Shown one piece after another: positions 40,311 to 45,951 of a stretch of DNA of 64,000 nucleotides. Origin of the DNA: Bdellovibrionales bacterium (lineage in GTDB: Bacteria > Bdellovibrionota > Bdellovibrionia > Bdellovibrionales > DASUEL01); assembly GCA_050250255.1 (NCBI GenBank), contig JBFWOZ010000010.1, positions 1 to 64,000 of the forward strand, given 5' to 3'. Each line of letters opens with the position of its first letter. The stretch's first letter is position 1. The notes under the pieces were generated by a model. The model had not been told where the DNA came from and ran no database searches. It worked only from the letters and a program-made list of their open reading frames with translations. The position numbers and the translations under genes were made by a program.

Positions 40311-41117
40311 ATGAAAACGGAAAACTTTGCTTACAAAGCAACAAAAAAAATGGCCCTCAAAACTCAGCCAAGAAACTTTCGAGAGTACCTTCAAGGTGAA
40401 TTTGTACTTCGCTGCAAAAAAAATCCACAGTATTCAATGAGAGCCTTCTCCAAGTTTCTAGGTGTTGAAAATTCATGGCTTTCAAAAATTCTGCGAGGAA
40501 AGAAAGTCGCCTCTCGTCAGTCAATAGAAAAATTGGCTTTTCGATTAGGTCTCTCTGCACATCAAGTCCAAAATCTTCAGTCATTAAGCAAGACGAATAA
40601 AGATAGTGAAGCCGCGTACAAAGTTTTGACTGAAGATATCTTTGAGGTCATCTCCGATTGGTTCCACTTTGCAATTTTGGAACTTATGAAACTTGATTCT
40701 TTTGAGGCAGACGAAAAATGGATTTCAAAAAAATTAGGAATTCCATTTATCGAAGCGCGATCGGCTATTGAAAGGTTAAAAAAAGTAGGACTGATCGAGA
40801 CGTGTGCAGATGGAAATTGGATAGATACGTCAAACGGCTTTACAACACACAACTTGGGAATTCATTTTACGTCAGCAGCTAGAAGGCGCCTACAAGAGAA
40901 TATCCTCGAGAAATCTCGAGAAGCTTTGGTGGCTCTTCCTATTGAAGAACGTGATCACAGTTCTATTATGATGGCGACAAATATGTCTAAGTTGGAAGAA
41001 GCAAAAAGAAGAATTGATACCTTTAGAAAAGAGATTTGCGATTTTCTAGAGGATTGTAACGAAAAAAATGAAGTTTACCAATTGTCAGTTGGATTGTTTC
41101 CGCTGACAAAAAAATAG
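40311..41117 (+). CDS. TIGR02147-like protein (HTH plus DUF4423)
   Basis: KNPQYSMRAFSKFLG HTH, ISDWFHFAILEL, EERD.S, VYQLSVGLFPL. Confidence 0.85.
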   Translation: MKTENFAYKATKKMALKTQPRNFREYLQGEFVLRCKKNPQYSMRAFSKFLGVENSWLSKILRGKKVASRQSIEKLAFRLGLSAHQVQNLQSLSKTNKDSEAAYKVLTEDIFEVISDWFHFAILELMKLDSFEADEKWISKKLGIPFIEARSAIERLKKVGLIETCADGNWIDTSNGFTTHNLGIHFTSAARRRLQENILEKSREALVALPIEERDHSSIMMATNMSKLEEAKRRIDTFRKEICDFLEDCNEKNEVYQLSVGLFPLTKK

Positions 41118-41125
41118 GAGATTCT

Positions 41126-42040
41126 ATGCGTACGATATCATTAATTTTAACTCTATCGTTTCTGAATATTGCGACCACTTATGCTGGTCAAGATGGGAGA
41201 GGTGGAAATGTTGTGATTTGCCCAGGTAAAGAGGTGGTCACATTAGACTACTATCACGCAACACTACCACCCTCTAATACAGTAGACATTTCAAGAATGT
41301 CTCGCGTTGAAGTTATTAACTTATTTAAAGAAAGATTGAAGGACGCATTTTTTCTCCAACAATTTGAAGATGCTTTGCAGGTTATAGGGCCTAGCTATTC
41401 ATGGATTGAAGACAACCTAAAATATGTCGATGACAGCAATGAACCCTACCAACTGCCCACAGGTTGCGTAAGAAAAACAGTAGCCGTGAGGCAAAACGAA
41501 GAGACCATGTTTAAGGATCCTGCCATCTATAGGCTTTTATCTGGAGCACAAATTGGAATCTTAGAAGTTCATGAGGCTTTTTATTATGTCGCCTCTAAAG
41601 TCGGGATTAATACTTCAGAAAGAATTCGTACCTTAGTAAGGGCTCTACTCCAAACATCTCCAGATCAAATGGCAGTTTATAAAGCGATGAGTGCTATTGG
41701 GGGCGGAACGCTTGCTATCATGGAGAAAATTCCGGGAACTTATGTTGGGACTCTCACTACACGTATTCTTGGTGAATACGAATTAAGATATAATGAAATA
41801 AGGGGTGTCTTCACTCTAGCGCCAGAAAATGGAATTTATATCGATTACGGCACAAATCGAAAACCCTGTACTCTAAAAGGCGAATCGGTCATTTGTTATT
41901 TTAAACACGATGATTGTGTGGTGACATATAATTTTTCACCTCGTGCAGGCACACTTTTGTTCAGTCGGATATGCGAGAGTTTGCCCGGTTCTACTCCTCA
42001 TCATATTTCTATGGGCACCTTAAAAAGGTACCCATTATGA
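41126..42040 (+). CDS. Secreted hypothetical protein
   Basis: Signal peptide, G..GRGGNVVIC, LDYY and HEAFY motifs; AGGAG RBS. Confidence 0.75.
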   Translation: MRTISLILTLSFLNIATTYAGQDGRGGNVVICPGKEVVTLDYYHATLPPSNTVDISRMSRVEVINLFKERLKDAFFLQQFEDALQVIGPSYSWIEDNLKYVDDSNEPYQLPTGCVRKTVAVRQNEETMFKDPAIYRLLSGAQIGILEVHEAFYYVASKVGINTSERIRTLVRALLQTSPDQMAVYKAMSAIGGGTLAIMEKIPGTYVGTLTTRILGEYELRYNEIRGVFTLAPENGIYIDYGTNRKPCTLKGESVICYFKHDDCVVTYNFSPRAGTLLFSRICESLPGSTPHHISMGTLKRYPL

Positions 42041-42146
42041 ACGACGTAGAATACAGCAGTCATTCCTTTGATAATCAAAAAATTAGCTCAATTTTGTCAT
42101 TCGTTCTGAGTGTCTCTAATTTGAGATTGGCTAATTCGATTTGGTT

Positions 42147-42162
42147 AGGCATACGAATTGCA
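42147..42162 (+). promoter_or_regulatory. Candidate sigma54 promoter
   Basis: AGGCAT-ACGAA-TTGCA about 30 bp upstream of 42191. Confidence 0.5.
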
Positions 42163-42190
42163 TTTTTTTAGGAAAAACCTTGGAGGTTCT

Positions 42191-42658
42191 ATGAAGTCGA
42201 TGATGATAGTATTTGCATTTTTAAGTGCGGCGTCTGCCTACGCAGACAATGGCTTTATTCTACAAAAGGGAGTGATGGTCTACTCTACACAGACGTTACG
42301 AGTTCCAGAACAAAATGGTCTCAAGCAAAATAAAGAGTACCGTTTTACACTACAGCACATCGAAGACTATGCTGATATTGTTGAATTTAAGGACACAGGA
42401 GTTAAGCTCCATTTCTCTGATAAAAATGCTTTGGGTGAACCTCAAAGTGGAAGAATAGCGCTTGTAAACTTTCTGTCATTGCTAAATGAGGGTAAAATTA
42501 AAGCAATTGGTGCAAAAAAAGTTGAAATGAATTTCACTGGATTTTGTTTGGCATATGTTCGTAAGGACGACACACAAGTGCTAGTTTTAGGTTCCGCCCT
42601 TGCTGATGTTAAGTCACTGGCTGATATTAAACAGGACAACTGCAAGCTTATTGACTAA
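42191..42658 (+). CDS. Secreted hypothetical protein
   Basis: GGAGG RBS and signal peptide ending in AYA. Confidence 0.72.
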   Translation: MKSMMIVFAFLSAASAYADNGFILQKGVMVYSTQTLRVPEQNGLKQNKEYRFTLQHIEDYADIVEFKDTGVKLHFSDKNALGEPQSGRIALVNFLSLLNEGKIKAIGAKKVEMNFTGFCLAYVRKDDTQVLVLGSALADVKSLADIKQDNCKLID

Positions 42659-42708
42659 AACACTTGTTTTTGTGCTAACTAGCGTTCAGAAACGCTGGGT
42701 CTATCTGG

Positions 42709-43602
42709 TCACAACTCTCGAATTCTCAATTGATTATGACTGCGGCAGAGAAGCCGCAAATTTTCAATCGAGTTGAGACCACCTAACGAATAGGGTTGGA
42801 TGTGATCAACCTCCAATTGAAATTTTGAATCACATTTCTTGCCGGCATGTGCATAAGTGCATTTTCCCTGATCCCTTTGCCAAACTACACGTTTAATCTG
42901 TGAGGGAATGTATCGGGTGTGTTTACGCAATGTTTCTTCGCCTGGTGAAGAAACGCTGGGTCGAGAAGTCGTGGCTTTTTTGAGGGCGGTTCGCTTCTTC
43001 AAAGCGTCGTTTGCCATCAAATCGATGAGTTCGGCAAAACTTGGATTTGGATGAATGTGCGAGTAAAGTTTTTTAAGTTCCTCTAATTTATCTGTGAGCT
43101 TCTTTTCCAACACAACCGTCACTTGAGTTTTATCATCGGACAACACCCGAATCTTTTCAATTGTGGGTAGGGTTGGGGACTTTTCAATCAAGACCTTTTC
43201 ACACTCGCGACTTGATTTGTTTTCAAGATTTTTAAAGAGCTCTAGCCTCTCTGCCTTATCGTAAGTTTTGTTTTGGTACTTCTTTTCTTGATTCAAAAAG
43301 GTTTGCGCTTTCGTCACGGTTACAAGATTGAGCGAACCTTCAGCTAGAGACTTTTTCACTTGGGGTAAATCACGAGTCACGCGCATTGCCGAAATACGGC
43401 GATAGGCGGCAGATTCGCTATATTTTAGCTCCTTCACGCAAAATTCCATGAGGCTACCGTAGCCTTTTTGATGATGGAGTTTGCGTCGATCCACCTCTTC
43501 CAGGAGCTCAATGATTTCTAAATTTAAATTTCGTTCGGCTTGAGTTTTTGTCAAAAGAATTTTGATCAGCTGATGATTTGAAAAAGATGAAATTTGAGTC
43601 AT
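42709..43602 (-). CDS. HNH endonuclease with long helical N-terminal (DUF222-like) region
   Basis: RYIP..IKR.VW.RD...C..C...LEVDHIQP...GG...ENLRLLCRSHN; AAGGAGG RBS supports ATG 43602. Confidence 0.88.
   Translation of the reverse strand: MTQISSFSNHQLIKILLTKTQAERNLNLEIIELLEEVDRRKLHHQKGYGSLMEFCVKELKYSESAAYRRISAMRVTRDLPQVKKSLAEGSLNLVTVTKAQTFLNQEKKYQNKTYDKAERLELFKNLENKSSRECEKVLIEKSPTLPTIEKIRVLSDDKTQVTVVLEKKLTDKLEELKKLYSHIHPNPSFAELIDLMANDALKKRTALKKATTSRPSVSSPGEETLRKHTRYIPSQIKRVVWQRDQGKCTYAHAGKKCDSKFQLEVDHIQPYSLGGLNSIENLRLLCRSHNQLRIREL
42925..42954. repeat. 30-bp palindromic repeat, intragenic copy
   Basis: ACGCAATGTTTCTTCGCCTGGTGAAGAAAC, 29/30 identical to 43868-43897. Confidence 0.9.
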
Positions 43603-43867
43603 AAAGACCTCCTTCGGTAAAGACATATTAGCATGAGTTTTTAAATCTTAAAATTTAGAGTTTAATTGGCCCGAGAGCGAAGAATTTTTACTTGCAACGA
43701 AGCTTCTTGAAAAGAAAATTTGCGTCGATTAAAGGGCAAATGCAGAAGAATAAAAAATTGTTTAGACGAGATTTTCTACACAAAATAATTTTTCTGATTT
43801 TAGCCAAAACCCATGTCAAGTATCAATTATAAATTATTTAAGAAATTGAGAGTTTTTTGAAACTCAA

Positions 43868-43899
43868 ACGCAATGTTTCTTCACCTGGTGAAGAAACAT
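43868..43899. repeat. 30-bp palindromic repeat, upstream copy (perfect 13-bp arms)
   Basis: ATGTTTCTTCACC-T-GGTGAAGAAACAT at 43873-43899. Confidence 0.9.
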
Positions 43900-44021
43900 C
43901 GTGTTGCAAATTCGCGAAATTATTTTGCGCTAAGACTTAACCTGAAATAATCAAAATTTGTTTGAGCATTAATTTTTTTATGTTAATTGTCGCTGCAGAA
44001 ACTTTCACAAAGGAGTAACAA

Positions 44022-44357
44022 ATGAAGTTATGGATTATGGCAGCAGTGGTTGTTTTTTCTCAAAATGCATTCTCAAAAGATTTGGCCTGCAGACTTGCAG
44101 AGACCTATGACGGCAAAAGCGCCGTCTATGCTCTGTCATCTGCAGAGGCAAAAATTGAGTCTGCTGGAAAACTACACAAAAGCCTCGAATTAAGAATTAC
44201 TGGAACAGAGGTCGATAACCAACCGGTTATCCTTCAAACTTTCACAAATATTACGACAGGCGAGACTTTTACGACGCGTGCAATAGGGAAAACATTAGCT
44301 TATGAGCATAAACACGCTCTAGGTGCTTTCGTTATCACCTGCAATTTTGTTCTTTAA
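44022..44357 (+). CDS. Secreted hypothetical protein
   Basis: AAGGAG RBS, signal peptide, Cys pair. Confidence 0.72.
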   Translation: MKLWIMAAVVVFSQNAFSKDLACRLAETYDGKSAVYALSSAEAKIESAGKLHKSLELRITGTEVDNQPVILQTFTNITTGETFTTRAIGKTLAYEHKHALGAFVITCNFVL

Positions 44358-44386
44358 TCTAGACGTATTAAGGAAGACACAAGCGT

Positions 44387-44416
44387 TCAACCCAACCGAA
44401 GAATAGGTTGGGTTGA
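44387..44416. terminator. 11-bp hairpin between convergent genes
   Basis: TCAACCCAACC-N8-GGTTGGGTTGA. Confidence 0.6.
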
Positions 44417-44419
44417 CTT

Positions 44420-44743
44420 CTAATGAGCGATCCAGATTTTCATTAATGTTGCGATGGTCGTGAACCCGACAATTAGAAGTGATCCGAGTTTTATGATCAT
44501 TCGGTACTCTACTTGCTGGATTTTGTTTTCGACGCTACTGATTTTGATTTCGAAAGATGTCGTTATATCTTTTCGAAAGCTCTCAAGTTCTTGCTTTAAG
44601 CCAGTTTCCAAAATTTTAAGATCTTGTTTTGTAGCCAACTCACCCTCGACAATCTCGGTTATGACTTGCAGTTGAATTTCTGCTTGTTCTCTCGAAAATC
44701 CAGCCTCTTCTAACTGCTTCGAATATTTGAACGCGTTAAACAT
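44420..44743 (-). CDS. DUF1640/CCDC90-like coiled-coil membrane protein
   Basis: F....Y.K.LEEAGFSREQAE, LATKQDL, C-terminal TM helix. Confidence 0.8.
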   Translation of the reverse strand: MFNAFKYSKQLEEAGFSREQAEIQLQVITEIVEGELATKQDLKILETGLKQELESFRKDITTSFEIKISSVENKIQQVEYRMIIKLGSLLIVGFTTIATLMKIWIAH

Positions 44744-45888: not shown

Positions 45889-45951
45889 GACCCGAGGGCC
45901 AACCTCAAACGGTACCTCGGACCTCAAACGGTAAACCCCAAACCTCCAACT

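Follow-up and report, generated by a model that had tools for sequence, protein, structure and literature searches.

An HNH nuclease gene family of Bdellovibrionota with a palindrome in its interdomain linker and, in part of the family, a cognate copy upstream

A 64,000-nt stretch of Bdellovibrionales DNA (the window) contains an HNH nuclease gene that carries a palindrome in frame between its predicted DNA-binding part and its nuclease domain, with a nearly identical palindrome upstream of the gene. This pairing of linker and upstream sites was found to be family-wide and cognate, with a matching upstream copy in between about one quarter and one third of the genes. The arrangement appears to be real, common to the family and undescribed; a literature search (mainly open-access articles) found no description of an HNH gene with such a linker palindrome. 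With moderate confidence, we lean towards an explanation in which a multicopy, likely selfish nuclease gene encodes in its linker a dyad-symmetric site that its own predicted ParB-type domain would likely bind, binding would restrain the nuclease, and cutting and repair would scatter the sites. The features of the locus are as follows.

42709..43602, minus strand: DUF222-like/HNH protein gene (open frame up to 43626)
43174..43536, minus strand: predicted ParB/KorB/Spo0J-type helix-turn-helix (HTH), residues ~31-151 counted from 43626
42958..43134, minus strand: predicted ribbon-helix-helix (RHH)-like domain, residues ~165-223, a small domain with middling Z
42712..42930, minus strand: HNH nuclease domain (PF01844), catalytic and zinc residues intact
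43814..43819, minus strand: TTGACA box, ~210 nt above the start
43867..43905, no strand: site C, upstream palindrome cognate to site B, ~50-85 nt upstream of the TTGAC box
42925..42962, no strand: site B, the palindrome of the interdomain linker, in frame and conserved in the family
42681..42701, no strand: site A, partial, collapsed copy of one B arm just beyond the stop
42709..43905, minus strand: unit running from site C to the stop codon and shared with the C18 paralogue at 80% nucleotide identity

The start codon is likely the ATG at 43602 and not 43626, because an AAGGAGG box (43608-43614) lies upstream of this ATG and the Atlas record of the protein begins at residue 9, counted from 43626. 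At this locus the TTGACA box has no good -10 element at a spacing of 17 nt; a TTGAC box is found 110-340 nt upstream in 62 of 80 family loci and is probably a promoter element. The leader of ~200 nt between this box and the start (window positions 43603-43813) is similar in length across the family and dissimilar in sequence. The gene lies antisense among small hypothetical genes (40311-42658 and 44022-44743), namely a gene of DUF4423/HTH type, a CCDC90-like gene to which stretches on contigs C35 and C7 are similar, and three unannotated ORFs whose starts resemble signal peptides. The neighbourhood looks like a variable islet. Further along the window, positions 45901-45950 hold a 50-nt repeat composed of CCTCAAAC-like units, with copies on at least 6 other contigs, often as inverted pairs, one of which brackets a small ORF behind the C73 paralogue.

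The initial annotation had described three palindromic sites at this gene, and their sequences were confirmed. Site C has as its core a perfect 13-1-13 palindrome (43873-43899), which extends imperfectly over 43867-43905 with arms of 19 nt that are 89% complementary. It folds well (hairpin z = -5.6), is scored as terminator-like and marks the upstream limit of similarity to the C18 paralogue. Site B lies in the coding linker before the HNH domain, as claimed, where it encodes VSSPGEET on the minus strand, spans residues ~222-234 between the DNA-binding part and the nuclease, and is identical to site C at 29 of 30 positions (42925-42954 against 43868-43897); as DNA it folds weakly (z -1.2). Site A, 7-28 nt beyond the stop codon, shares 14 bp with B, and this 14-mer occurs exactly twice in the 3.09-Mb genome. 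Site B here equals the arm of A joined exactly to the core and flank of C. A degenerate 21-nt pattern (up to 3 mismatches) matched only B and C in the 64-kb window, against 0.01 expected, and across the 3.09-Mb assembly this palindrome variant was found only at this locus (contig C10) and at the C18 paralogue; here it is no high-copy genome-wide repeat.

Site A is largely confined to this locus. Within 100 nt of the stop, 2 of 144 genes have an exact match of at least 14 nt to the linker, and the second of these cases is a duplication of the start of the HNH part. In shape, site A is one B arm with its flank, folded back and lacking the centre, and it lies where similarity to C18 stops; we infer that it is a templated repair scar and not a conserved element end.

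This genome holds 16 near-full-length paralogues of the gene, plus several fragments. The C18 paralogue (86% amino acid identity), whose nucleotide similarity ends exactly at the stop codon, has its own B (a 16-5-16 palindrome) and C, and no A. Other close paralogue pairs have 250-450 nt of upstream DNA in common and diverge near the stop. Genes that consist of the N-terminal part only and end just past the linker site also exist (L048), and family loci are rich in microsatellites and indels. One member, L019, has a very long linker with three in-frame peptide repeats encoded by palindromes (TSTLKV, TSTSKV and TSTSLVKV). Family matches were found in 27 of 41 genomes in an order-level scan, with up to 45 per genome, and were absent from the other 14; in a phylum sample the family was present in 68 of 151 genomes. 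Both Atlas neighbours, which are partly labelled DUF222 (12% of one cluster), and the named scan records point to Bdellovibrionota, and searches of phage and plasmid collections for carriage of the family gave no match. The family behaves as a patchy, multicopy and likely selfish gene with fast turnover, and the analogy with DUF222 and RAYT/REP elements drawn at the outset is apt. A swap of N-terminal modules between B and C was considered on the basis of one mosaic pair (L004/L033), but the correlation of 0.75 between N-terminal and HNH identities (160 pairs) gives no sign that such swaps are general.

Linker-upstream pairing was analysed in those 144 of 159 distinct full-length genes for which 600 nt of flanking sequence was available on either side, the other 15 being excluded for short or masked flanks. 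The loci are best-scoring matches and not a random sample. At a match score of at least 14, 40 of 144 genes, from 27 of the 74 clusters formed at 55% identity, had upstream DNA that matched their own linker; in two of them (L031 and L039) the match is low-complexity A/T. By comparison, linkers matched the upstream DNA of other clusters in 3 of 432 cases, and an N-terminal coding segment matched upstream DNA in 0 of 144. Downstream DNA (within 600 nt of the stop) was matched in 5 of 144 genes, against 1 of 288 in the control. Cognate linker and upstream copies are present in homologues, and downstream matches are rare. The best pair was identical over 44 of 44 positions (L059), and tandem arrays lie upstream of some family genes. 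Within clusters, the own match beat the cross match in 48 of 74 pairs, with 20 reversed and 6 tied, the pairs being non-independent. A clear upstream match was absent in 104 of 144 genes. Upstream sites are located at -563 to -190 or at -98 to -12, and most copies lie above the TTGAC box and therefore outside the likely mRNA. A family profile gave scores of at least 16 in 42 linkers, 28 upstream regions and 9 downstream regions, against 1 in a shuffled control (n=144 each); at a score of at least 14 it was found in 53 of 144 linkers, many linkers having no recognisable site. Three perfect copies of the palindrome (upstream, linker and downstream) are present at L073. At L120, the ORF is flanked by two direct copies of a 21-nt sequence of the family palindrome type (1486-1506 and 2460-2480), one containing the ribosome-binding site at the start and the other lying at the stop codon.

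Several observations concern the level at which the linker palindrome is kept. Perfect palindromes with 9-bp arms were found in 11 of 144 linkers, against 0.2 in synonymous shuffles and 1 in N-terminal segments, and with one gene per cluster the count was 7 of 74 against 0.2 expected; at 8 of 9 pairs, the counts were 27 for linkers, 5.4 for synonymous shuffles and 14 for N-terminal segments (n=144). The linker consensus reads CACTTCCGGC followed across the centre by GCCGGAAGTG (even form) or TTACTGCCGC.N (odd form). Family-wide, the site has a single position and mostly one reading frame, and its peptides, LPAPEV and TAAEV, are tied to that frame. A comparison of L020 with L320 and L321, which occupy one orthologous locus, shows synonymous changes in both arms that leave the palindrome and the peptide TATVAV intact. 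L320 and L321 retain the linker site in spite of having lost the upstream copy, and the internal site is therefore the primary element. Judged from these sequence comparisons, linker symmetry exceeds what the peptide needs and the palindrome is kept as DNA. The central base pairs are as symmetric as the arms (0.71-0.77, from a family profile trained on both half-sites, which biases towards symmetry), and such a symmetric centre is more readily explained by a double-strand site than by a hairpin loop.

With regard to the protein, Pfam identified the HNH domain (PF01844, E 3e-8) and a sub-threshold DUF222 match (PF02720, 18.8 bits against a cut-off of 24.4, covering only profile positions 12-109 of 306). 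In an AlphaFold model built on 56 homologues (mean pLDDT 92), residues 224-234, encoded by site B, are the only segment with pLDDT below 50. Structural searches with the HTH part returned KorB (8qa8, Z 6.7, rmsd 3.4 over 99 residues; 1r71, Z 6.2), ParB (6s6h, Z 6.6) and Spo0J (1vz0, Z 5.3), four ParB-family chains among the top non-HNH structural matches; fold Z scores of 6.2-6.7 are middling, in the range that the search tool rates as possibly common. An hhalign comparison of the HTH part with 28 ParB HTH domains of related genomes gave a probability of 60% (pairwise E 8.5e-5), against 0.4% for a reversed control, while Foldseek with the model gave no match at E <= 0.001. These results suggest, with moderate strength, a predicted ParB-type HTH DNA-binding domain. 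In the model, no more than two helices lie N-terminal to the HTH, and there is no match to the ParBc (N-terminal CTPase) family. Residues ~165-223 matched MazE (6a6x, Z 5.0), TraM (3on0, Z 4.9), MatP (3vea, Z 4.8) and TacA1 (7zg6, Z 4.7), which we take to be ribbon-helix-helix folds. The DNA-binding folds predicted for the protein are thus of a type that recognises palindromic sites. Residues 233-305 matched HNH nucleases at Z 7.3-7.5, and across 159 homologues the catalytic and zinc residues are nearly invariant (His 100%, Asn 99%, three Cys 99-100%). No recombinase fold was found by Pfam on the protein, by profiles over 56 members or by structural search, and Y1_Tnp was absent from the protein and from the 25 families listed for the 56 members.

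A possible reader of the site was sought among 50 cluster representatives with a scored site, using identity windows of 40 columns. Site similarity correlated with HTH windows at rho 0.32-0.34, with RHH windows at 0.19-0.23 and with HNH windows at 0.17-0.21; the top window, spanning the end of the ParB-like part and the RHH strand, reached 0.38. In a partial Mantel analysis, the ParB-like region gave 0.31, RHH 0.06 and HNH 0.00. Quite different recognition helices are found with one common consensus site. The correlation is only a hint that the ParB-like HTH region may read the site, because shared ancestry confounds it.

Related genomes provided four comparisons of filled and empty sites (L049/L091, L120, L143 and L141), in which the filled alleles carry inserted stretches of 1.5-2.4 kb, two of them with cargo genes. 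These insertions end at or near host stop codons and terminators, in none of the four at a cognate palindrome; the empty alleles hold no palindrome able to serve as a target, and neither fixed ends, an att core nor a target duplication was found in the four comparisons. This boundary test is weakened because a clear upstream-linker pair is lacking in all four genes. The sole sharp junction, that of L049 against L091 (flanks 91-97% identical), shows an overlap of ~1 nt and no target duplication, and this insertion has repeat-bounded ends and cargo. At one orthologous chromosomal site in genus g31 (loci L020, L142, L198, L308 and L320-L339), 24 alleles were read, selected from 44 genomes with gap size as one criterion, and 16 of them contain strongly diverged family genes, in one orientation throughout; among the 8 gene-less alleles, 6 are without a site and 2 have weak hits inside ORFs. 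Between L020 and L320, the flanks are 90-93% identical and the genes 70%. One other genome of the bacterial family, searched for an empty allele of the locus studied here, gave no match. A search of the Logan contigs for 3 DNA runs of a single study, one of these runs possibly being the source of the window, found no circle or excision joints, a result that is uninformative either way since such contigs drop rare forms.

Palindromes of this type also occur away from family genes. A scan of 185,579 genomes for an exact consensus 19-mer found 37 loci, 25 of them in taxa labelled Bdellovibrionota, 12 of these 25 coming from the two genomes used to derive the motif. A family gene lies within 1.3 kb of only 6 of the 37 loci (4 genes); the others are mostly intergenic and comprise single sites, palindrome-type mosaics, tandem arrays and direct repeats bracketing a small cargo gene. 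Non-coding copies retain full symmetry. In a pattern scan with the four central bases left free, among the sites listed (3 others not being among them) a self-complementary centre was found in 25 of 49 from family-carrying genomes (11, some of them related) and in 0 of 13 from genomes without the family, the chance level being 1 in 16. In the present genome there are a few solo copies of the sites of other paralogues, often directly after stop codons. A metagenome scan for the exact site of this locus gave 8 loci, all in long ORFs and none near a family gene, which were taken as chance, and protein-seeded locus scans gave no matches.

Other repeats were observed near family genes. A structured repeat of ~75 nt lies mostly 3-130 nt past the stop codons of paralogues in this genome (L222-L235; contigs C1, C5, C6, C8, C14, C17, C29, C30, C31, C34, C39, C70, C82 and C92), with a long outer stem (by eye), two inner hairpins and a GGATG tail. 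Of 18 profile hits (E < 0.01), 17 are within 300 nt of a family gene, six of these having built the profile, and both-sided change was seen in 4 of 9 predicted pairs. It is absent at this locus and at C18. Its reading as a guide RNA was rejected: it has no Rfam match, a sequence-only profile found none at the family loci of other genomes, and it is missing here; Rfam searches of 14 family loci gave no gathering-level match. Y1-type transposase genes with their own flanking inverted repeats were seen at L216 and L218 in this genome and at L101 in genome G010. In genomes G010 and G030, a 41-nt repeat that flanks a Y1 gene, assigned as such from the start of its sequence only, also lies just upstream of many HNH-family promoters. 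Six contig ends (C17 on the right; C27, C71, C31, C53 and C87 on the left) belong to a multicopy element that was left unassembled, is bounded by terminal inverted repeats of ~17 nt and is presumably IS5-like. All six sit centrally in AGCTTC-N6-GAAGCT palindromes, the site type of the C31, C27 and C5 paralogues, one within an upstream site and one within a linker, and the element has a similar palindrome near one end; this second element seems to target family palindromes. C17 had been considered as a deletion between upstream and linker sites and is actually the flank of this element inserted in a palindrome.

According to the explanation that we favour, a dimer on the internal site, and on the upstream copy if present, would repress the gene or stop transcription ahead of the HNH part. 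From time to time the nuclease would nick or cut DNA next to a bound site, and the damage would be repaired by copying another site. This could hold B and C near-identical, produce scars such as A and give rise to solo palindromes, and it could occasionally relocate the gene together with cargo and with imprecise ends; site-specific att recombination would not be required. A wider proposal, which we regard as possible and hold tentatively, is a phylum-wide selfish system in which a ParB-reader HNH nuclease with a master palindrome in its own coding sequence would, by transposase-free cutting and repair, seed REP-like palindromes, arrays and cargo-flanking repeats and move itself. It is rather unlikely that the palindromes are REP-like repeats mobilised in trans by a host Y1 (HUH) transposase, with the HNH gene as a passenger and the linker as a tolerant landing place, in the manner of IscB and TnpB, which are passengers in IS200/IS605 elements. 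This genome does have 6 Y1_Tnp matches above the cut-off (8 in total), two with flanking inverted repeats, and the BIME-like mosaics and arrays of solo sites, the repeat-bounded, cargo-bearing L049/L091 insertion without target duplication and the 75-nt repeat after many paralogues would all fit. However, the linker site is fixed in position and mostly in frame, the upstream copies are cognate to the adjacent gene, the inverted repeats around both Y1 genes here differ in sequence from the family palindromes, a GTAG-type head is absent, copy number is low, and fully symmetric sites were seen only in HNH-family genomes.

A role of the linker palindrome as RNA, either as a hairpin at which transcription or translation would pause or stop between the domains or by antisense pairing with RNA of the upstream copy, would account for its location exactly between the domains, its persistence after loss of the upstream copy in L320 and L321, the good folding and terminator-like score of site C and N-terminal-only genes such as L048 that end after the site. 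We consider it quite unlikely, given that a loop has no need of symmetric centres, that B folds weakly and that most upstream copies are outside the likely mRNA. The initial annotation had proposed that A and C mark element ends and that B is reminiscent of an att or circle junction; on this model the unit would excise and integrate by site-specific recombination. The composition of B from the arm of A and the core and flank of C, the similarity to C18 that runs from C to the stop beside A, the three perfect copies at L073 and the direct repeat around the L120 ORF are in line with this proposal, but A-type sites are almost confined to this locus and lacking at C18, where B and C are present, cognate palindromes are missing from the boundaries and empty alleles of all four comparisons and from 6 of the 8 gene-less alleles, and the protein has no recombinase fold; both parts of the proposal now appear very unlikely. 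Least probable of all is a neutral by-product, in which a codon-driven quasi-palindrome is combined with chance local duplications near an unstable gene. The fixed frame, which ties the site to the peptides LPAPEV and TAAEV, and the abundance of microsatellites and indels would suit it, yet it is largely refuted by the cognate-match and synonymous-shuffle tests, with the compensatory synonymous changes, the empty N-terminal control and the symmetric non-coding copies also speaking against it.

DUF222-HNH-like genes are abundant, and no mechanism is assigned to them in the literature found. Since each gene appears to state its own DNA target, the family may offer dozens of natural protein-site pairs that are directly testable, and a compact (~300 aa) reader-plus-HNH protein with 15-20-bp targets is a possible tool. 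If the enzyme also spreads palindromes, this would be a second route, besides RAYT, to REP-like repeats; a 2013 survey describes one REP class apparently without a dedicated transposase (PMC3733652). Should the phylum-wide HNH system prove true, it would represent an HNH-driven counterpart of RAYT/REP together with a natural library of protein-site pairs that can be read from the genes.

Among known systems, the DUF222-HNH or REP13E12 genes of actinobacteria are likewise multicopy, with a DUF222-like N-terminus and a C-terminal HNH domain. The protein studied here scores below the PF02720 gathering threshold with partial cover, and 20 of 56 members match the DUF222 profile at E <= 0.05 (best 1.3e-7), which makes the family a remote relative. 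DIVE places REP13E12/HNH/DUF222 among repetitive elements (PMC10589994); the literature found mentions no palindrome, fold or mechanism for such genes. RAYT/REP systems (REPIN, BIME) similarly combine an enzyme gene with cognate palindromes that occur solo, in mosaics and in intergenic arrays; according to one study, gene and REP coevolve, REPs are dispersed, and the RAYT gene always lies between two inverted REPs with a GT(A/G)G head (PMC2817692). The RAYT enzyme is of the HUH/Y1 type and REPs number in the hundreds, whereas here the enzyme is an HNH nuclease, the gene is multicopy, the master palindrome is inside the coding sequence, sites number from units to tens, and there is no obligatory inverted flanking pair (as reflected in the few downstream cognate copies), GT(A/G)G head or non-complementary middle. 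KorB recognises a 16-bp operator that may lie close to the promoter or well upstream of it (PMC11790492), and the ParB-parS and KorB-OB systems likewise have the DNA-binding fold predicted here, a dyad site of 15-20 bp and near or far upstream sites; the present protein has neither the N-terminal CTPase domain nor a parA partner, is fused to an RHH-like domain and a nuclease, and has its site within its own gene. The family further resembles HNH homing endonucleases and IscB/TnpB in lacking a transposase of its own and in its patchy, intergenic distribution. Free-standing homing endonucleases and the IscB/TnpB of IS200/IS605 are selfish nucleases without their own transposase and with patchy intergenic occupancy. 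The empty alleles that were read show no conserved target; compared with IscB/OMEGA, only the HNH part matches (32.6 bits for the full IscB profile against a cut-off of 175) and no Rfam family lies near the genes at the 14 loci searched. By their defining features, the family falls outside RAYT/REP, KorB/OB, IscB and classical IS/att elements, while in its logic it is like RAYT/REP and in its predicted recognition like KorB/OB.
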